From NCBI GenBank assembly GCA_963727485.1, contig CAVSGM010000011.1, positions 160,001-224,000 of the forward strand: a stretch of DNA of 64,000 nucleotides, read 5' to 3'. Origin of the DNA: an uncultured delta proteobacterium (GTDB lineage: Bacteria; Myxococcota; Myxococcia; SLRQ01). Below are positions 3 to 9,099 of the stretch, one piece after another (positions within the stretch are counted from its first letter, which is position 1; every line of letters begins with the position of its first letter). A program made the position numbers and the translations under genes. The notes under the pieces were generated by a model that was not told the DNA's origin, did not search any database, and saw only the letters and a program-made list of their open reading frames with translations.

Positions 3-626
3 CTCGAGGCCACGGCCCCCACGCCGCCCGCACCCGCGCCGCCCGCACCCGCGCCGCCCGTCCTCGCCCCCGTCCCCCTCCGCGTCCTCTCCACCGCCCC
101 GGTCGCCATCGTCGTCCCGGCGGCGGCGGGCGCGCTCTACCTGCCCCTGGCCCTCACCTGGCGCCTCCACCCGGGCCTCGAGCTCCTCGTCGACGGCGCC
201 TTCACCCGGGGCCCTTGGTTGGGCTGCGCCAGCCGGTCCACCGGGGGGTGGCTCTCGGTGGGGCTGGTGCGGATCTCGGCGCGGGGCACCGGGCCCCTGG
301 TGGCGCTGAAGCTCACCGGGCGGGTGTTCGACACCCGCGGCGGGACGGCCAGCGGGTGGTTCGGGTGCAGCAGCGCCGACGTGGCGCTGCTCCAGGGCAC
401 CGACGGCGAGGTCGGCGCCGGCGTGGACCTCGGATGGCGCTTCGCCTGGCGGCGGCTGGTGGTCGAGCCCCGCCTGGGGGTGGGCCTCGCCGTCTGCGCG
501 AACTGCGTCGGCGGCTCGGCGTTCTTCGCGGGACCGGTGGTCCTCGGCGGCGACCGGACGCGCCGGTCCACCCGGGTGACGCTCACCCTGGACCTCGAGC
601 TCCTACGCGTCGGGGTCCGGTTCTGA
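3..626 (+). CDS. 5'-truncated hypothetical protein, probably a small outer-membrane beta-barrel with a Pro-rich linker
   Basis: Frame is open from the window edge (PTPPAPAPPAPAPP...). Alternating hydrophobic strands and a C-terminal ...LRVGVRF with terminal Phe. Confidence 0.55.
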   Translation, partial: LEATAPTPPAPAPPAPAPPVLAPVPLRVLSTAPVAIVVPAAAGALYLPLALTWRLHPGLELLVDGAFTRGPWLGCASRSTGGWLSVGLVRISARGTGPLVALKLTGRVFDTRGGTASGWFGCSSADVALLQGTDGEVGAGVDLGWRFAWRRLVVEPRLGVGLAVCANCVGGSAFFAGPVVLGGDRTRRSTRVTLTLDLELLRVGVRF

Positions 627-1688
627 GGCGGAGCCCCGCGCCGCGCCGCCGCCGGTCCCGGCCCCCACCGCGCGCGCCGGTCCGCGCACCGGGCGCCGGC
701 CCGGGGGTGCGAGGTCGAGGTGGCGGGCGTAGGCACGGTGGACCGCCGCCGCCTCGGCGGCGAGGTCCCGGGCGAGGGGCTCGGGCGCGAGGACGATCAT
801 GGCCGGGCCGAAGGCGCGGATGAAGCCCCGGAGCTCGGGGGTGTCGGTGACCGTGAGCTCGACCAGGGCCGAGCCGTCGGCCCGCCGCTGAAGGCGCTGG
901 GTGGGGTGGAAGGGCGTCTCGGCGAGGACGTCGGCGGCGGCGCTGGAGACCTCGAGGCGCAGGGCCAGGGGCGGGCCGCCGGCGAAGACGCCCAGGGACT
1001 CGCGGAACCCGCTCTCGAGGTTGTGCTCCACCGGCGGCGGCTGGTGCGCCTGGCCCGGGGTGAGGACGCGGATGCGGTCGAGCCGGAGTGCGCGCGGGGT
1101 GCCGTCGAGGTCCTCGGCGACGAGGAGCAGGCCGTGGCGGTGGCGCCGGAGGCCCACGACGAAGACCTCGAGGTCCACGGGGCGCTGGCGGCCGAGGCCC
1201 TGGTAGCGCAGGTGGAGGCTGCGTCCGCTCCGGAGCGACGCGAGGATGTCGGCGAGGTGGGCCTCCCGGGCGGCGGGGTCGTCGGGGCCGTCGGCCGCCG
1301 GCGGGTCGGCGAGGACCGCGGCCACGGCGGCCACCTCGACCCCCGGCATCGTCGCCCGGAGCCGGGCCGCGGCCTCGGCGAGGGAGGCGGCGTAGGGTGC
1401 CGAGGTCTCGAGCTCGGTGGCCGCCATCCACACCGCCATCACCTCGGTGAGGGTCGGGGCTCGGGCGGGCTCCGCCGCCGGTGGGACCTCCAGGCGCCAG
1501 CGGGTGGTCGCCCCCTCCCGCTCGGGGACCAGGGGCAGTCCGGCGTCGCGAAGGGCCCCGAGGTCGCGATAGACGGTGCGCGCCGACACCCCGAGCGCCG
1601 CGGCCAGCTCGGCCGCCGAGGCGCCCCGCCGCCGAGCCTCCAGGTGCTCGACCAGGCGCCACCTTCGCTCACGGGGGTCGGATCGCAT
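603..1688 (-). CDS. WYL-domain transcriptional regulator (HTH_11 + WYL + WCX; YafY/DriD/PafBC-like)
   Basis: N-terminal wHTH AAELAAALGVSARTVYRDLGALRDAG; WYL core LRY...GLLLVA...RALRLDRI; WCX-like FHPTQRL...ELRGFIRAFG...VLAPEPL. ATG at 1688. Confidence 0.9.
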   Translation of the reverse strand: MRSDPRERRWRLVEHLEARRRGASAAELAAALGVSARTVYRDLGALRDAGLPLVPEREGATTRWRLEVPPAAEPARAPTLTEVMAVWMAATELETSAPYAASLAEAAARLRATMPGVEVAAVAAVLADPPAADGPDDPAAREAHLADILASLRSGRSLHLRYQGLGRQRPVDLEVFVVGLRRHRHGLLLVAEDLDGTPRALRLDRIRVLTPGQAHQPPPVEHNLESGFRESLGVFAGGPPLALRLEVSSAAADVLAETPFHPTQRLQRRADGSALVELTVTDTPELRGFIRAFGPAMIVLAPEPLARDLAAEAAAVHRAYARHLDLAPPGRRPVRGPARAVGAGTGGGAARGSASEPDPDA

Positions 1689-1709
1689 CGCACCACCATG
1701 CACCAACCT

Positions 1710-1728
1710 CGTGACGGATCCGGTCACG
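1710..1728. promoter_or_regulatory. Palindrome CGTGAC-N7-GTCACG, candidate operator of the WYL regulator
   Basis: Perfect 6-bp inverted repeat in the 94-bp divergent intergenic region; same GAC-N7-GTC geometry as the DriD box. Confidence 0.6.
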
Positions 1729-1782
1729 CGCAACCGCACGCGGGTCCCAGGGCGTGATAAACCTCGGGCATCCGGAGGATCC

Positions 1783-2775
1783 ATGCCGAACGTCGCCCTG
1801 CGTCCCAAGACCAACCTCTCGCTCTTCCGCCGAGTGGCCATCGGTACCTGGCACACCGTGGGCGACCCCACCGTCTACGGGAGCATGGACCTGCGCCTGG
1901 ACGAGGCCCTGCGCTACATCGAGGCCTACCGCGACGCCACCGGCCGCCGGCTGACCTTGAGCCACCTGATGGCGAAGGCCGTCGCCGCGGTCTTGAGCGA
2001 GCACCCCGACGCCAACGCCATCCTCCGCTTCAACCGCATCTACCTCCGCGACCAGGTGAAGCTCTTCTTCCAGGTGGCGCTGGAGGATCCCGAGACCGGT
2101 GAGGTCGACCTCTCCGGGGTCACCGTCGAGGACCCGGAGGACAAGACCCTCGGCGAGGTCCTCGACGTCTTCGAGCGCCGGGTGAAGAAGGTGAAGAAGC
2201 AGGAAGGCGACGAGCTCGCCCAGAGCCGGGGGATGTTCCGGTGGATCCCCTCGCTGCTCCTCAACTTCGTGCTCTCGCTCTCCGGCTTCCTCGCCTACAC
2301 CCTCAACCTCGACCTCTCGTCGGTCGGGGTGCCCCGGGACGCCTTCGGGTCGGCGATGATCACCAACATCGGGTCGCTGGGCCTCGAGGAGGCCTACGTG
2401 CCGCTGGTGCCCTACAGCCGGGTGCCCCTGCTCATCGCCATGGGCTCGGTGCGGACGATGCCGGTGGTCGAGGACGGCGAGGTGATCACCGGGAAGGTGA
2501 TGCGGGTCTCGGTGACCTTCGATCACCGGATCCTCGACGGCGCCCACGCCGCGGCCATGGCCAAGACCGTGCGCGCGTGGATGGAGCACCCCTTCGACCA
2601 CTTCGACGCCATCGAGGACGCGGCGGCGGCCTCCGCGGCCCGCGAGGCGCTCCCCGAGGCCGGCGGCGCCGCGCACGCCGCCGCGGACGCCGGCGCCGCC
2701 CGCGATCCCGCGGACGCCGGCGCCGACGCCGCCACCGATCCCGCGGTCCGCCTCGCCGAGGGCGGCGGCGACTGA
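1783..2775 (+). CDS. 2-oxo-acid dehydrogenase E2-like acyltransferase, catalytic domain only
   Basis: ITNIGSLG and FDHRILDG catalytic motif; no lipoyl domain; GGAGG ribosome-binding site before the ATG. Confidence 0.9.
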   Translation: MPNVALRPKTNLSLFRRVAIGTWHTVGDPTVYGSMDLRLDEALRYIEAYRDATGRRLTLSHLMAKAVAAVLSEHPDANAILRFNRIYLRDQVKLFFQVALEDPETGEVDLSGVTVEDPEDKTLGEVLDVFERRVKKVKKQEGDELAQSRGMFRWIPSLLLNFVLSLSGFLAYTLNLDLSSVGVPRDAFGSAMITNIGSLGLEEAYVPLVPYSRVPLLIAMGSVRTMPVVEDGEVITGKVMRVSVTFDHRILDGAHAAAMAKTVRAWMEHPFDHFDAIEDAAAASAAREALPEAGGAAHAAADAGAARDPADAGADAATDPAVRLAEGGGD

Positions 2776-4310
2776 TGCCGATCCCGGCGCCGCGGACCGT
2801 GGTCCTCACCGAGGACCAGCAGGCGGTCGTGGCGCGGTGGCGCGCCGCCCCGGACCGGGCCACCCGGGAACGGATCTACGCCGAGGCGCTGGCCGAGGGC
2901 TACGCCCCGCGCTTCGCCGAGCTGCCCCTCCACGGGGGCGTCGCCGGCCAGCCGAGGCCCCGGGCCCTGGTGAGCCTGGTGGGCCACGCCTGGCAGCCGG
3001 CGGCGCTCATGGCCGCCTGGGTCCGCCCCGAGCGCCTGCTCCTGCTGCGCACCCGGGAGCCCGCCGCCGGCGCCCCCTCGGCCCTGGAGCTGGTCAGCCG
3101 CCTCTCGGGCCTGTCCCTCGACCGCATCGAGCACCAGTGGGTCCTCGGGGGCGGCGAGCTGGCGGTCTACGAGGAGATCCGCGACTTCCTCGCCCGGGGG
3201 CGTCTCAAGCCCGACGAGCTGGCCATCGACGTCACCGGGGGCAAGAAGTCCATGGCGGTGGCGGCGGCGCTCGCGGGCTTCCTCGCCGGGGCGCGGCTGC
3301 TCTACGTCGACTACCTCGAGGTCGACCGGGGGACGCCGGTGCCGGGGACCGAGTACCCGCGGCTCCTGGCGAACCCGCTCGCCATCCTCGGCGAGATCGA
3401 CATCGACCGGATCCGCGAGGCCTTCGACGGGGGCCACTACCTCGACGCCGAGCGCCGCGCCGAGGACCTCGCCCGGCGCCTCTACGAGCCCTGGACCGCC
3501 GAGGCCCTGGGGCTCCTCGCCCGGGGCTACGGCGCCTGGCACCGCTTCGACTTCGAGCGGGCGCGCTCGGCCCTCGCCGAGCTGCGCACCCTCCTCGACG
3601 CCCGGGCGGGCCACGCCGGCGCCGCCTGGGTGGGCCGGGTGCGCCCGGTCCTCGACGGGCACCTCGCCCGCCTCGGCGCCCTCCTCGAGGCCACCGCCAA
3701 GCCCGAGACCGTGGCCGCCGGGATGCCCGGGGTCCTCAACCACCTGGCGGCGTCGGCGCGGGCCCTGGCGCAGGAGGACCTCGACGACGCCACCCTGCTC
3801 CTCTACGCCACGGTGGAGCGCTACGTGGATCTCTGCCTCTGGGTCGACGCCGGCCTCACCGACCGGGACCCGGACTACGGGCGCCTCGAGGGGCGCCTCG
3901 ACCTCGACCGGTACCGCGACCTCGGCAGCCGCCTCTTCGAGGGCCCGGCCCCCGAGCGCCCCCAGGGGCCGCTCCTCTACCTCGCGGCCGTGCGCCTCCT
4001 GGCCGCCCTGGCCCCCGAGCGCCTCCCCGATGGCGATCTCGGCTGGGTGCGGGGCCTGGGACGGATGCGCAACGAGCTGGTCCACGGCCTGGTGCCCACC
4101 CACCCGGGTGCCGGGGAGGTGGCCTCGAAGCTCGGCCGGGTCAAGGGGCTCCTGGCGCCCGCCGCCGGGGGCGAGGCGGCGCTGGAGGCCGAGCTCGCCG
4201 CCCTGCGCTTCCCGGAGATTCTGATCCCGGGCGCCCTCCGGGGCTGCGTCCGCCGGTCCCGGCGCCGGCGTCGACACCAGCCGGCCTTTGGGTGTACCCC
4301 GGAGCCATGA
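2775..4310 (+). CDS. CARF-HEPN protein (TIGR02710/Cas02710, Csm6-like); true stop may be ~4224
   Basis: CARF strand-1 LVSLVGHAWQP and IDVTGGKKSM motif; LLANP...G linker; GYGAWHRFDFERA helical region; HEPN-type RNELVH (RxxxxH). Coupled to the upstream gene by TGATG. Confidence 0.85.
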   Translation: MPIPAPRTVVLTEDQQAVVARWRAAPDRATRERIYAEALAEGYAPRFAELPLHGGVAGQPRPRALVSLVGHAWQPAALMAAWVRPERLLLLRTREPAAGAPSALELVSRLSGLSLDRIEHQWVLGGGELAVYEEIRDFLARGRLKPDELAIDVTGGKKSMAVAAALAGFLAGARLLYVDYLEVDRGTPVPGTEYPRLLANPLAILGEIDIDRIREAFDGGHYLDAERRAEDLARRLYEPWTAEALGLLARGYGAWHRFDFERARSALAELRTLLDARAGHAGAAWVGRVRPVLDGHLARLGALLEATAKPETVAAGMPGVLNHLAASARALAQEDLDDATLLLYATVERYVDLCLWVDAGLTDRDPDYGRLEGRLDLDRYRDLGSRLFEGPAPERPQGPLLYLAAVRLLAALAPERLPDGDLGWVRGLGRMRNELVHGLVPTHPGAGEVASKLGRVKGLLAPAAGGEAALEAELAALRFPEILIPGALRGCVRRSRRRRRHQPAFGCTPEP

Positions 4311-4735
4311 ACGGCACCGCCGAGTGGCTCGTCGATGGGGGCCCGTGGATCTACGCCCTGCTGGTCGTGGGCTTCCCGGTGACCGCCATCGGCGTCGTCG
4401 GCTTCATCGGCGGGCTGATGCTCAAGGACCGCCGGGCCGCCCGCTGGCTCGCCGGGGTGGCGCTGTTGCTGACGGTGATCGTCCTCGGCATCGGCTGGGA
4501 GGCCGGGCGGGTGCAGCTGGTGCGGGGCCACGCGGCGATGAGCCACGCCCTGCCCTCGGACCGGGAGACGGTGCAGGCCGACGCCGACGCCAACGCCCAG
4601 GTGCCCAGGAACCTGGCGGTGCTCCTGGCGCTGATGCCCTTCGGGGCCGCGGTGATGCTCGGGGTCCGGGGGTTCATCGGGTGGGGCGGCGGGGCGAGGT
4701 CGTCGAAGCCCGAGGCGGTCGAGGACGCGGAGTGA
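4307..4735 (+). CDS. Small 3-TM membrane protein (short MotA/TolQ/ExbB-like)
   Basis: GGAG RBS; WLVDGGPWIYALL N-terminus; three hydrophobic segments. Confidence 0.6.
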   Translation: MNGTAEWLVDGGPWIYALLVVGFPVTAIGVVGFIGGLMLKDRRAARWLAGVALLLTVIVLGIGWEAGRVQLVRGHAAMSHALPSDRETVQADADANAQVPRNLAVLLALMPFGAAVMLGVRGFIGWGGGARSSKPEAVEDAE

Positions 4736-4815
4736 GCGACCGGGCGGGTGAGCGGCGCGGGGAACGGGAGCCGGCGTAGGCGCTGCGCCTCGTGGTTCGG
4801 CTGACCTGCGCCGTA

Positions 4816-5282
4816 GCGATGCGCCGCTTGAATCGGCGCACATCGCGAGGCGACGCTGGGCCGACGCCGGACGCTGCCGGCGACACGGCACGGGCGCGCC
4901 CACGGCAGGATGCGGGCGCCGAGTGATCTACCGGCGTTCGCGGGGCGGCCGGCCCTGCGCCACCGGGTGCCTGCACCCCCACGCGGGCGCGCCCGCCGGC
5001 GACCGGCCGCGGGGCCGCCGGTGCGACGCGCCTCTTGAATCGGCGCACATCGCGAGGCGACGCCGGGCCGACGCCGGGCCGACGCCGCACCGACGCCCTC
5101 CGCTGCCGGCGATACGGCACGGGCGCACCCAGGGCGGGATGCAGGCGCCGAGTGATCCACCTCCGCTCGCGCGGCGGCCGGCCCTGCGCCACCGGGTGCC
5201 TGCAGCCCCACGCGGGCGCGCCCGCCGGCGACCGGCCGCGTAGCCGCCGGTGCGACGCGCCGCTTGAATCGGCGCACATCCC
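4816..5282. repeat. Imperfect tandem repeat (periods 207 and 229 bp), each unit starting with a ~31-bp hairpin
   Basis: GCGAYGCGCCKCTTGAATCGGCGCACATC starts at 4816, 5023 and 5252; the intervening ~180-200 bp are also similar to each other. Confidence 0.9.
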
Positions 5283-5323
5283 GGGCAAACCACGCTCCCG
5301 CGGCCCCCGACCCCCTGCGCCTC

Positions 5324-7294
5324 TCAGTGCAGATCGGCAGCCAGGATCGTCCGGAGCGCCGCAGCGGCCGCGGCGTCGTCGCCCTCGCCCCGGGCCGCTG
5401 CGTAGGCCCGCGCCGGCGCCCGGAACCGCGACTCGGGCCCCAGCGGCAGGCGCGACAGGAACCGCCCAAGCCGCGCCTCGAGGTCGGGGGGCAGCACGGC
5501 CGCCGCCCCACCGTCCGCCTCCAGGGCCCGCGCCACCCGCACCGCCGCCACCCGCCCCAGGGCGTGGTCCGTCACCGGCCCCGGGTGCGCCCCGGCCAGC
5601 GCCGCCAGCCGCGCCTCCCACCGGCGCGCCCGGGCCCCGTCGCCGGCCGCGAGGCAGGCCTCCACCGCCCGCGCGCAGGCGCCGGCGTGGGGCCAGGGCC
5701 CGGTGCCGTCGGCGTCGAGGCGGTCGGCCAGCGCGGTGAGCGCCCCGTCGAGGTCCCCGTCCGGCGCCGCGGCCTCCACCCGCAGGGCCTCGTAGGCGAG
5801 GTAGAGCTCGTTGGCCCGGCGCCATCCGTCGCTCATCCCCGGCTCCCGGTCGCTCTCGGCCCGGGCCTCGGCGAGCGCCGCCCGGGCGGCGTCGACGCGC
5901 CCGAGCCGCGCCAGGGCCCCGATGCGGTAGGCGCGGCCGATGTTCGCCTCCCAGGGGGCGGCGTCGGCGAAGCGGGCCAGGGCGTCGTCGAGGCGGACCA
6001 GGGCCTCGGCGTCCCGGCCGGCGTGGGCCTCGACCCGGCCGGCGGTGGAGGCGATGCGCGCGCCCTCCACCGCGTCGGCGGCGGCGTCGGCGGCCGCCTC
6101 GGCCTCGGCGAGGTAGGCCCGGGCCGCCTCGAAGTGGTGCCGGTCGATCATCCCGCTCGCCTCGACGTTCCGGGCCCAGGCGACCAGCGCCGGCGGGGGA
6201 CGGCCCTCGGTGAGGCGGGCGTCGAGGGCGGCGGCGACCTCCGCGGCGGCCTCCGGGCGTCCGGCGTGGGACCGGTAGGCGCACAGGAGGGTGAGCAGGG
6301 CCAGGTGGGCGGTCCACACGGCCACCGGCTCCCGTCCCAGGGCCGTCGCGATCTCGGGCCAGGCCTCGGCGAGGGCCTCGAGGCGGGCGGCGAGCACCGG
6401 CACCGGCACCGCCCGCACCCGGTCGAGCCACCGGGCCTCCTCCACCGCCTCCAGCCACGCCGGGAGGGTCGCCGGGCGGAAGGGCCCGGGGGCCAGGCCC
6501 ACCGCGTCGGCGAGGGCGTCGAGGTCTTCGACGGGGATCACCTCGGGTCCCCCGGGGGGCGAGGGCACGGCGAAGCCCACGGGGACGAAGAGCCGGCGCA
6601 CGCAGGCCCGCTCCCGGTGGAGGCCCACGACCTTGGCGTGGACCCCCCGGCGGGCGCCCTCGGGGAGCGTGAGGCGCCCGGCGTCGTCGAGGTCGCCGGT
6701 GACGGCGAAGCCCGGGTCCAGGGGCACGTCGCTCCAGGCCGAGAGGAGCATCAGGGCGAGCGCGGCGCCCATGGAGCCGCCCTCGACCCGGGGGGCGGCG
6801 GCCGCCGGGAGCTCGTCGAGGACCACCCGGTGCCACCCGAGGCGCGGGGTCAGGGGGCGGGTGCCCCGGCGCCGGGCGGCCCAGGCGAACGCGCGCTCGG
6901 CGGCGGCGTCGGCGGCGGCGTCGGCGGGGGCGGCGCCGGGCCAGAACCGGGGCCACGGCCGCTCGGCGGGGCCGAGGCGCTCGAGGCGCACCCGGAGCAC
7001 GGCGCCCAGGTCGTCGTGGCTGGAGAGCCACCAGGTCGTCCCCGGGGCCGGCACCGGTGGCCGGGTGGCCCGCGCGGGGATGGCGGCGGCGTCGCCGACG
7101 GCGAGCTCGAGGCGGGCGGCGAGGGCGTCCCTGCGCGCCGGGGCGAGGGCGCCGGCGGGGATCGCCCGGGCGGCGTTGACCGCACGCTGGCGCGCAGGAC
7201 CCCGGGCGGGATCCCCGGGGTCCACGAGGCTCTCGAGCCGGCCCAGGGCCTGCTCCAGGGCGAGGACCGGACGCAGGCGCGTGTCGTCGCTCAT
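5324..7294 (-). CDS. AAA-less Lon-type (S16) protease domain fused to a C-terminal TPR-like helical region
   Basis: VEGGSMGAALALMLLSA...AVTGDLDDAGRL...GVHAK matches the Lon DGPSAG...AMTGE...GG..K Ser-Lys dyad pattern; RLFVP and EVIPVEDLDAL follow. Then Ala-rich helical repeats. No Walker A. Confidence 0.8.
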   Translation of the reverse strand: MSDDTRLRPVLALEQALGRLESLVDPGDPARGPARQRAVNAARAIPAGALAPARRDALAARLELAVGDAAAIPARATRPPVPAPGTTWWLSSHDDLGAVLRVRLERLGPAERPWPRFWPGAAPADAAADAAAERAFAWAARRRGTRPLTPRLGWHRVVLDELPAAAAPRVEGGSMGAALALMLLSAWSDVPLDPGFAVTGDLDDAGRLTLPEGARRGVHAKVVGLHRERACVRRLFVPVGFAVPSPPGGPEVIPVEDLDALADAVGLAPGPFRPATLPAWLEAVEEARWLDRVRAVPVPVLAARLEALAEAWPEIATALGREPVAVWTAHLALLTLLCAYRSHAGRPEAAAEVAAALDARLTEGRPPPALVAWARNVEASGMIDRHHFEAARAYLAEAEAAADAAADAVEGARIASTAGRVEAHAGRDAEALVRLDDALARFADAAPWEANIGRAYRIGALARLGRVDAARAALAEARAESDREPGMSDGWRRANELYLAYEALRVEAAAPDGDLDGALTALADRLDADGTGPWPHAGACARAVEACLAAGDGARARRWEARLAALAGAHPGPVTDHALGRVAAVRVARALEADGGAAAVLPPDLEARLGRFLSRLPLGPESRFRAPARAYAAARGEGDDAAAAAALRTILAADLH

Positions 7295-7307
7295 CGGACG
7301 GAGGGCA

Positions 7308-8297
7308 TCATCCCTCGCTGGCGGGCGGCGGGTCGAGGGGCAGGGTCTCCGTCTGCTCGCCGTCGCGGCCCCGCCAGCGGACCGAGAGGGTGTGGGCGCC
7401 GTCGCCGGTGCCCGAAAGCGGCACCCACCACGAGAGGGCCACGTCCGAGCGCTGGGGCGCCGCGGGCCCCGGCGGGTCGAGGGTCACCGAGACCAGGCGC
7501 TCGAAGCGCCCGTCGGCGTCGCGGATCACCAGCCCCGGGGGCGCGTCGTCGTGCTCGGCGAGGCCGTGGGCGTGGACGAGCACCCGGCCGTCGAGGAGCC
7601 GGGCCACCGGGGGCCCGAGCGGCCGCTCGAGGATCCGGGCGAGCTCGGTCTCGGCGTCGGCGCCGTAGTGGAAGGCGACCTCGGCGTCGGCGGCGCGGCG
7701 GGTGAGGGCGAGCGCCATCCGGGCGCCGATCAGCGGTCGGGCGAGCCAGCCGGCCACCGCCTCCCGGTGGGCGGCGAGCAGCAGGGGATCGAGCCACCAC
7801 GCCGGCTGGGCGGCGCGGGCCAGGGCCTCCAGCCAGGGGGCCTCCGGGCCCTCGGGGTCCTCGGCGAGGCCCCGGGCCACCTCGGTGGCGTGCCGGGCGC
7901 CGAGGACGTCGACCTCGCCGGCCCGGGCGAGGAGGGCGCGCTCCCGGGCCGCGGCGCCGATGCCCAGGGCCCACAGCAGGCTCTCGGCGTCGTCCCGGGC
8001 GGCGGCGACGGCGAAGGCCCGCCCGGGGCCGAGGCTGGCGAGCCCCTCGGCGGCGGTCTCCAGGGACCGGTCCGCGGCGGCGGCCACCGCCTCGGCCACC
8101 TCGCCCACCACGGTCTCCCGGAGCCAGGCGTCGAGGCGCCGGGCCAGGCCGTCGACCTCGTCGCTGCGCATGAGCCGGGCGGCGGCGAGGACCGCGACCA
8201 CCGGGTCGGCGCCCGGGTCGGCGAGGGCGTGGGCGAGGGCTTCGGGCAGCCAGTCCGGGAGGACGGCGAGGTCGTCGGAGGTCAGGGGCGCGCGCAT
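7308..8297 (-). CDS. Hypothetical protein, putative anti-sigma factor/protease substrate (helical N-terminus, beta-rich C-terminus)
   Basis: GGAGA RBS before ATG 8297; lies between the sigma and protease genes; motifs RDDAESLLWAL and QPAWWL; no transmembrane segment. Function is inferred from context. Confidence 0.55.
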   Translation of the reverse strand: MRAPLTSDDLAVLPDWLPEALAHALADPGADPVVAVLAAARLMRSDEVDGLARRLDAWLRETVVGEVAEAVAAAADRSLETAAEGLASLGPGRAFAVAAARDDAESLLWALGIGAAARERALLARAGEVDVLGARHATEVARGLAEDPEGPEAPWLEALARAAQPAWWLDPLLLAAHREAVAGWLARPLIGARMALALTRRAADAEVAFHYGADAETELARILERPLGPPVARLLDGRVLVHAHGLAEHDDAPPGLVIRDADGRFERLVSVTLDPPGPAAPQRSDVALSWWVPLSGTGDGAHTLSVRWRGRDGEQTETLPLDPPPASEG

Positions 8298-8403
8298 CGG
8301 TCGGTCTCCAGGGCGACGGCGACCCCCGGCCGGCGAGTGGTCGGGCGCGGGTCTGGCGGGGCCGCCGTGTGGCGCCGACGCCCCCCTCGCGCGGCATCTG
8401 ACA

Positions 8404-9099
8404 TCAGGACTCGTCCTCCTCGCAGCCCACCAGGCGCACCAGGAGATCCGCCTCCGCCGGGGTGATCTCCCCGGTCTCGAGGAGGGCCTGCACCGCCTCG
8501 CACCCGGCGACCTTCCCCCGGCGTCGGTACTGGTAGATCCGGTCCCGGGCCCGGCGCAGCGCCACCTTGTCGTCCGGGTCGTCGGGGGCGGCCCACCGGG
8601 CGATCTGGGCGTCGATGTCGGTGCCGACGATCCGGGCCTCGAGGTGGACCCGGAGGTTGTGGCGGACCATCTCCAGGTCCCGCTCCCGGTGCAGGCGGGC
8701 GAGGGCCCCCTCGAGGCGGTCGAGGAGGGTCTCCATGTCCTGGCCGGCCAGGGGGTCGGGGGTGGCCGGGGCCCTTTGTTGCGGTGCATCATCCAGGTCC
8801 ACCAGGCGTCGCTCCCGGCGGATGACGTCGAGGACGTAGCGCTGGAGGATCCGGCTGCACCAGGCCCGGGCGGCGCGGTCGTCGTCGCCCCGGAACCGGG
8901 CCCGGCCCAGGCTCGCCTTGAGGACCACCTTCTGGATCGCCTCGTCGATGAGATCGTCCGAGGCCCGGTAGAACCGGCGGCGCACCACCCCCGGCGCGAA
9001 GTGCCGCAGCTCCTGGTAGAGGTGGCTGGCGGCGCGCTCACGGTCCATGCGGCTGGTCGCGTCCGAGGCGAGGATCTGGAGCCACTGGCACAGGCTCAT
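8404..9099 (-). CDS. Divergent ECF-type RNA polymerase sigma factor
   Basis: Sigma region-2 pattern DDLIDEAIQKVVLK...RFRG...AWCSRILQRYVLDVIRRERR; atypical region 4 (IDAQIA...RARDRIYQYRRRG). Confidence 0.7.
   Translation of the reverse strand: MSLCQWLQILASDATSRMDRERAASHLYQELRHFAPGVVRRRFYRASDDLIDEAIQKVVLKASLGRARFRGDDDRAARAWCSRILQRYVLDVIRRERRLVDLDDAPQQRAPATPDPLAGQDMETLLDRLEGALARLHRERDLEMVRHNLRVHLEARIVGTDIDAQIARWAAPDDPDDKVALRRARDRIYQYRRRGKVAGCEAVQALLETGEITPAEADLLVRLVGCEEDES

Follow-up and report, generated by a model that had tools for sequence, protein, structure and literature searches.

We analysed a 64,000-nt window from an uncultured delta proteobacterium (Myxococcota, Myxococcia, SLRQ01; contig CAVSGM010000011.1, forward-strand positions 160,001 to 224,000), in which three neighbouring genes encode a sigma factor resembling the extracytoplasmic function (ECF) type, a soluble partner protein, and an ATPase-less Lon protease fused to tetratricopeptide repeats (TPRs). 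As stated in a preliminary description of the window, the three genes are co-oriented; the minus-strand open reading frames (ORFs) were recovered, with intergenic gaps of 106 and 13 bp. We regard this trio as a real three-gene module, conserved and so far undescribed, of the predicted protease/anti-sigma/sigma kind. Its features, in the direction of the genes, are:

8404..9099, minus strand: ECF-like sigma factor, 231 aa, with sigma2 at residues ~1-97 and a divergent sigma4-like part at residues ~111-218
8377..8402, minus strand: predicted ECF promoter GTCAGA-N17-GTC, directly behind the sigma stop codon and 79 nt upstream of the partner ATG
7308..8297, minus strand: soluble partner, 329 aa, predicted anti-sigma factor and substrate, with a helical domain (residues 1-175), a linker, and an Ig-like beta-sandwich (residues ~228-325)
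7650..7769, minus strand: partner linker, residues 177-216, with a predicted cleavage region near F209-D214 (predicted local distance difference test, pLDDT, <50; alignment A9)
5324..7294, minus strand: 656-aa Lon (S16) protease without ATPase, with fused TPRs (by homology)
6509..7069, minus strand: Lon protease domain, about residues 76-262 (alignment to the LonB domain 1xhk)
6773-6775 and 6632-6634, minus strand: Lon dyad Ser174 and Lys221 (1xhk alignment, conservation)
5495..6307, minus strand: TPR-like helical region, predicted sensor, about residues 330-600 (profile matches; boundaries approximate)

Conservation and architecture of the trio

Genomic context was obtained for 5 of 21 protease matches or their close relatives. 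The loci stem from the window's own genome (G000, 93% complete), two further trio genomes of the same family (G128 and G283), a Polyangiales genome (locus L050, genome G401), and a metagenome contig (L048); G332 and G336 are family genomes without the trio. Conservation elsewhere had been fixed in advance as a test, and the gene order sigma-partner-protease is kept in all five loci, which span two classes. The L048 trio proteins stand at 26-31% identity, and the flanks of the trio are unrelated in L048 and L050. Near-identical cluster members of all three proteins are present in a public protein collection. The module is nonetheless rare, with true sigma orthologues in 3/401 genomes of the phylum and 3/5 of the family. 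The Lon-TPR family is wider, since look-alikes of the protease in the Atlas form unnamed clusters with members from Lentisphaerota, Planctomycetota, and Myxococcota. We found no published account of the trio or its promoter motif, although supplementary tables (ECF reclassification, CARF surveys), which were not covered, could list it.

The preliminary description had given the protease a Lon domain with a Ser-Lys dyad, no ATPase, and a TPR-like tail, and all three elements were borne out. Against the LonB protease domain 1xhk, the protein scores E 7e-6 as a single sequence and E 1e-17 as a profile. A search of 1.84 billion proteins returned 21 representatives at E<=0.001; leaving aside three fragments and one 1065-aa protein, S174 and K221 are invariant in 17/17 full-length aligned homologues at 18-47% identity. 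The Walker A motif (G-x4-GK[ST]) was found in none of 19 Lon-TPR proteins. The tail profile matches consensus TPRs and kinesin light chain TPRs at E 1e-10 to 1e-9, and TPR_12 was matched in 9/17 homologues, not including the window protein itself. Searches against Pfam, NCBIfam, and PADLOC detected no SAVED domain in the protease, where the region past the Lon domain matches TPRs, and in place of a CHAT (His-Cys) protease domain, which was not found, the protein carries the Lon domain.

Several further observations concern Lon proteins. The final residue is Tyr in 15/19 Lon-TPR proteins (alignment A1) and His in the window protein; judged from the alignment, the C-terminal Tyr may mark an autoinhibitory or docking C-terminus. 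A separate, intact LonA is present in G000 on C2, and a second LonA gene (C1:1053125-1055132) is read in several frames, which suggests assembly indel errors or a pseudogene. In a profile search of 151 phylum genomes, the 150 matches listed were to the Lon domain only, except in G000 and G128. The 1065-aa protein (P0025), which has ~600 extra N-terminal residues before Lon-TPR, was considered as a fusion with the partner and set aside; the resemblance is by eye only and the partner profile gives E 0.91. Two candidate relatives (L032 640-2160 and L033 634-2148) were likewise rejected, as they have the reverse order (TPRs before Lon) and a DnaK/DnaJ-like context. They represent a separate ATPase-less Lon family, flanked in two genomes of family f2 by genes judged by eye to be DnaK-like and DnaJ-TPR-like.

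The sigma factor had been described as a divergent ECF sigma, and the sigma2 fold is indeed present. The window protein matches Sigma70_r2 at E 7e-5, below the curated Pfam cut-off, and TIGR02937 at E 1e-6; Pfam gave no region-4 match. Its AlphaFold2 (AF2) model (pLDDT 85.7) aligns with sigma2 of SigC (Z 9.7, root-mean-square deviation (rmsd) 2.3, 82 aligned residues) and with sigma-E (Z 9.4), and weakly with sigma4 of SigD (Z 5.1). Foldseek returned no match to the model at E<=0.001; its top rows are nonetheless ECF sigmas. For the two most distant orthologues the best NCBIfam match is CASP-sigma (NF041236, E 3e-9 and 3e-7; 37 and 30.6 bits), against which the window sigma scores 16.1 bits (E 0.008), all under the cut-off of 100 bits. 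This sequence match is a hint of common ancestry.

In line with its earlier description as a soluble 329-aa protein of no family, the partner has no Pfam, NCBIfam, or PADLOC family and no usable Atlas match. No membrane helix is predicted, because its highest 19-residue hydropathy is only 1.28 (1.28 or less in three partners). The AF2 model (pLDDT 77.5) separates the helical domain and the beta-sandwich by the low-confidence linker, where alignment A9 displays a pattern of a hydrophobic residue followed by a small one. Conserved motifs are RDD-ES and WW. A fold search with the model gave generic matches only (best Z 6.4), comparison of the partner profile with sequences of solved structures gave nothing meaningful, and no DUF1822 match was found. 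By analogy with CalpT, the cleaved partner in the CalpL-CalpT-CalpS system of clustered regularly interspaced short palindromic repeats (CRISPR) loci, we predict that the partner is both anti-sigma factor and protease substrate. A cut near F209-D214 would yield pieces of about 210 and 120 residues.

A promoter motif and a predicted envelope regulon

The motif GTCAGA-N17-GTC (N16 in L050) occurs at the 3' end of the sigma gene in 5/5 loci, in G128 within the coding tail. Across G000, the exact motif has 15 sites at spacer 17, compared with 4-10 at each other spacer from 10 to 25 (Poisson p 0.002). We applied a fixed rule by which a promoter-like site is intergenic and has behind it a coding-like ORF preceded by a ribosome site; 13/20 sites at N16/17 are promoter-like in G000 versus 5/88 at other spacers (Fisher p 2e-8).

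The G000 genes behind these sites encode PspA, PspC, a flotillin, an SPFH protein, NfeD followed by FloA, an SPFH-zinc-ribbon protein, Yip1 followed by HlyD (membrane fusion protein, MFP) and an ATP-binding cassette (ABC) ATPase, an outer-membrane efflux protein, and several small membrane proteins; the predicted target families were confirmed by Pfam. Further motif-headed genes in G128 and G283 code for DUF4126, YbjQ, DUF975, and subtilase proteins, and in G128 only, sites also stand at an ABC transporter operon divergent from sigma and at a CarD gene. Taken from sequence, the motif set is predicted to be a sigma-W-like envelope regulon, seen in three same-family genomes.

Individual target genes were compared between genomes with and without the trio. 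An exact site is present at the sole nfeD match in 3/3 same-family trio genomes and in 0/30 loci from 30 other genomes (30 of 62 matches, with about 1.5 kb upstream, which may miss the promoters of long genes); six further regions gave none either. One pspA orthologue has a site in 3/3 trio genomes (two with one mismatch in the -10 part) and in neither of the two family genomes that lack the trio, and 27 other pspA loci from trio-less genomes contained a single relaxed site, about 1 kb away. For SPFH genes, a site within 1.5 kb was found for 3/3 in G000, 4/8 in G128, 1/4 in G332, and 0/6 in G336.

At test versus control spacer, the strict pattern was counted 17 vs 5 times in G000 and G128; the 34 genomes of the same class that lack a full-length Lon-TPR match gave 117 vs 143. 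Only this same-class subset was summed, leaving out 115 genomes of other classes, because motif counts over the whole phylum are noisy and some genomes, such as G021 and G073, have counts inflated by repeats. The two trio-less family genomes (59% GC) had 0 of 15 promoter-like sites each, from 26 and 23 sites, a weak result because the promoter-likeness rule depends on high GC; Pfam detected no Psp, SPFH, or NfeD family in 27 candidate ORFs behind their sites.

Some motif occurrences stand apart from this set. The site at C5:80821, near the other pspA of G000, lies inside a coding region and was treated as chance. At C2:639867-639891 of the same genome, two divergent genes, neither with a Pfam family, are headed by a pair of overlapping sites, one on each strand. 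In the Polyangiales genome G401, a site in L261 (515-1110) precedes tRNA-like sequences and an SPFH gene, and another in L151 precedes an HNH gene followed by two tRNA-Leu genes. These tRNA-linked sites could be an RNA-repair-type output or could have arisen by chance from tRNA-like hairpins.

Relation to known protease and sigma factor systems

The trio shares with CalpL-CalpT-CalpS an ATPase-less Lon Ser-Lys dyad and an ECF-like sigma in one three-gene unit, and its partner is, like CalpT, a soluble two-domain protein of about 33-35 kDa. Cleavage in an LAAA motif splits CalpT into pieces of 24.3 and 10.9 kDa, which have to be processed further before CalpS is free (10.1101/2024.05.08.593097, 10.1101/2024.05.08.593092). 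Unlike CalpL, the protease has TPRs in place of SAVED, its predicted output is an envelope regulon, and its genome yielded no cas10 or RAMP gene of the kind found in the type III loci that provide CalpL with cyclic oligoadenylate. CalpT consists of MazF-like and DUF2080 domains, whereas the N-terminal domain of the partner is all-helical in the model, and no CalpT match emerged by sequence or among the best 50 folds. Type III-E Csx29/Csx30/CASP-sigma also combines a TPR-fused protease with a sigma and a partner, which is cleavable in the case of Csx30. Here, however, the protease is of the serine (Lon) and not the cysteine (CHAT) type, no Cas7-11/RAMP gene was found in the family genomes, and NF041236 scores of 37 bits or less set the sigmas apart from CASP-sigma.

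The trio would work like CalpL/T/S and Csx29/Csx30/CASP-sigma but is a member of neither. The preliminary description had presented it as a hybrid of CalpL and Csx29; this describes the architecture only (Lon dyad, TPRs). Its proposal that the same protease/anti-sigma/sigma logic operates without cas genes is indirectly supported by the constant trio order, the invariant dyad, the CalpT-sized layout of the partner, a promoter placed like rseAP3 of Escherichia coli, and CASP-sigma as best match of the distant orthologues.

RseA of E. coli spans the membrane and is cut by DegS and RseP, and the sigma-W promoter consensus differs from GTCAGA-N16/17-GTC. Cyanobacterial HetF-PatU3-HetZ is a CRISPR-independent protease-partner-sigma set. 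The sigma-W regulon of Bacillus subtilis includes floA, floT, pspA, and yknWXYZ, with activation via anti-sigma proteolysis (PMC8144471). The set predicted here is similar in its pspA, flotillins, nfeD-floA, and a Yip1-MFP-ABC set like yknWXYZ. RsiW, by contrast, is membrane-bound and cut by membrane proteases, whereas neither partner nor protease of the trio has a predicted membrane helix. Located inside rpoE, the sigma-E promoter rseAP3 drives the operon of the anti-sigma factor (PMC8595263). The trio resembles this arrangement in its predicted sigma-type promoter at or in the 3' part of the sigma gene, upstream of the regulator genes.

CRISPR-independent neighbourhoods of caspase/CHAT proteases with ECF sigmas and DUF1822 proteins are known from multicellular-type bacteria (PMC8195603); unlike these, the trio has a Lon protease instead of a caspase fold, and its partner lacks a DUF1822 match. 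An ECF reclassification considers that further, unknown soluble anti-sigmas probably exist (10.1101/2019.12.11.873521); in the available part of that text, mentions of 'Lon' do not concern the protease.

Proposed switch, rival explanations, and neighbouring genes

We give an even chance to a complete chain in which the trio is a cytoplasmic, ATP-independent protease/anti-sigma switch that drives an envelope-protection regulon. At rest, by analogy with CalpT, the N-terminal helical domain of the partner would hold the sigma, and the partner may dock on the protease via its C-terminal beta-sandwich. A peptide-type membrane-damage signal would bind the TPR region and switch on the Ser-Lys dyad. 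The protease would then cut the partner within or near its linker (residues 177-216), which would free the sigma, perhaps once the partner fragment is degraded further. We infer that the sigma is the reader of the computed GTCAGA-N16/17-GTC promoters; freed, it would transcribe the motif-predicted targets, namely pspA, pspC, flotillin/SPFH, nfeD-floA, and Yip1-MFP-ABC genes. From the internal promoter it would also transcribe the genes of its partner and the protease and so reset the switch.

A number of observations weigh against this chain. Neither CalpT nor Csx30 is among the best 50 fold matches of the partner, and the LAAA motif is not conserved in its alignment. The sigma model matches sigma4 of SigL weakly (Z 5.7, rmsd 3.4, 77 aligned, residues 111-218). 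No motif was found upstream of the sigma gene itself, whose start region looks, from its sequence, like a leaderless housekeeping -10 element. G000 has 27 sigma70-family matches, and 20 sigma-like ORFs were checked for the motif. The SPFH genes of G283 have a site in 0/3 within the available DNA, and the share of promoter-like sites in G128 and G283 (12/32) does not differ significantly from that in three high-GC trio-less genomes (3/18, p 0.2). The cross-genome statistics overstate the case because the three regulon-bearing genomes are kin. Finally, the envelope regulon is not general, since in G401 only 1/38 exact sites is promoter-like, the trio's own; two pspA genes there have no site, and the one SPFH gene of five that has a site carries it about 550 nt upstream inside a hairpin.

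Somewhat unlikely, in our estimate, is an arrangement in which the sigma drives the envelope regulon while partner and protease form a shut-off or effector arm, so that the protease is not the activator. The partner would then be an adaptor or inhibitor of the protease, which would remove the sigma or damaged proteins. The motif upstream of the partner and protease genes is what negative feedback or regulon membership would produce, and there is a precedent in the PCaspase system, where the protease cuts the sigma and a small partner inhibits the protease (10.1101/2023.06.23.546230). Yet the two domains and central linker of the partner resemble a cleavable CalpT-like substrate in layout, and rseAP3 illustrates that anti-sigma operons are commonly driven by the sigma itself.

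The second alternative, an anti-phage or conflict system, draws on a gene ~1 kb from the trio that the preliminary description had missed:

2775..4310, plus strand: orphan CARF-HEPN (Csx1/Csm6-like) gene (TIGR02710 77.6 bits, cut-off 83.9; Csm6_6H; PADLOC CARF_HEPN)

In this scenario, which we regard as unlikely, the TPRs would sense a phage protein, the trio would work with the CARF-HEPN RNase, and the membrane genes would counter phage damage. It would suit the patchy and rare distribution of the trio and the CASP-sigma match of two orthologues. Furthermore, CARF-HEPN orthologues lie 0.1 to 6 kb from the trio in 3/3 same-family trio genomes, and the HEPN R-x4-H is intact in all three. The CARF ligand motif, however, is degenerate in two of them, no motif site was found upstream of the CARF-HEPN gene, and no trio protein has a PADLOC match. 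No cyclase for the CARF protein was detected in the family genomes, which were searched for cas10, RAMP, mCpol, and SMODS: cas10 was not found in G000, and RAMP, mCpol, and SMODS genes were not found in 5/5 family genomes, with genome incompleteness as a caveat. Of the earlier statement that the window has no cas10, RAMP genes, or array, the part on cas10 and RAMP agrees with the search of G000 (93% complete), and for arrays the repeats at 4200-5400 were covered. The genes that bear the motif belong to envelope stress, which disfavours the phage-defence flavour also suggested earlier. The CARF-HEPN gene was not seen in the L048 and L050 loci, both of which are short. In three genera (in the window and at L015 5276-6958 and L016 4128-5459) it sits behind a 2-oxoacid dehydrogenase acyltransferase-like gene. 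It is probably a case of family-level synteny and not a core part of the trio.

We consider it quite unlikely that another ECF sigma reads the motif, with partner and protease as mere regulon members and the trio sigma doing something else. There are 26-27 sigma70-family matches per same-family trio genome, three related genomes could share another ECF, and the motif resembles generic ECF promoters such as that of ECF41. Against this, the motif stays with the sigma gene in the distant loci L048 and L050, and no wider regulon is seen in G401, the genome of L050. Among the 20 sigma-like ORFs checked in G000 it stands beside the trio sigma only (0/19 others), and it is missing at the orthologous pspA promoters of two trio-less family genomes. 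It is very improbable that the Lon domain serves as a scaffold without catalysis, or that the three genes lie side by side without being related: the Lon_C match of the window protein is weak (E 0.0076) and four residues are inserted between the dyad residues, but the dyad is invariant in the 17 divergent homologues and the gene order constant in the five loci.

If the envelope-stress switch operates as proposed, it would link protease-sigma cascades to envelope stress biology. It would also suggest that membrane damage can be sensed by a cytoplasmic route, and it would provide a small transcription switch, gated by a protease, in which the sensor might be exchanged. The outputs of CRISPR protease-sigma cascades are largely an open question, as stated for PCc-sigma (10.1101/2023.06.23.546230). 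The most useful new feature of the trio is its predicted promoter and, in this family, a predicted envelope-stress regulon. Because this non-CRISPR relative has both, every step is accessible to tests that need only a reporter and the three soluble proteins, and the motif offers a handle for finding the outputs of other Lon-TPR trios. It is possible, if on the doubtful side, that trios of a Lon-TPR protease, a soluble partner, and a CASP-sigma-like factor form a general CRISPR-independent class of cytoplasmic one-protease signalling. One of them would here have taken over a full sigma-W-like membrane-repair regulon with no membrane-spanning sensor, so that a TPR peptide receptor would perceive membrane damage from within the cell, and CRISPR CalpL and Csx29 would have been recruited from such stress switches with a swapped sensor.

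Two further genes and a repeat were noted near the trio. A gene for an HTH-WYL-WCX regulator (603-1745, minus strand; HTH, helix-turn-helix) is divergent from the acyltransferase and CARF genes. At window positions 4809-5306, a 209-nt element that contains inverted repeats is duplicated (89% identity, period 229); it is similar to repetitive extragenic palindromic (REP) or miniature inverted-repeat transposable (MITE) elements. The duplication (4846-5283) was rejected as a CRISPR array, as it has two long copies and partial copies are dispersed elsewhere, on C1 and C3. Between the CARF gene and these repeats, a small membrane protein of no Pfam family is encoded at 4352-4735 on the plus strand.

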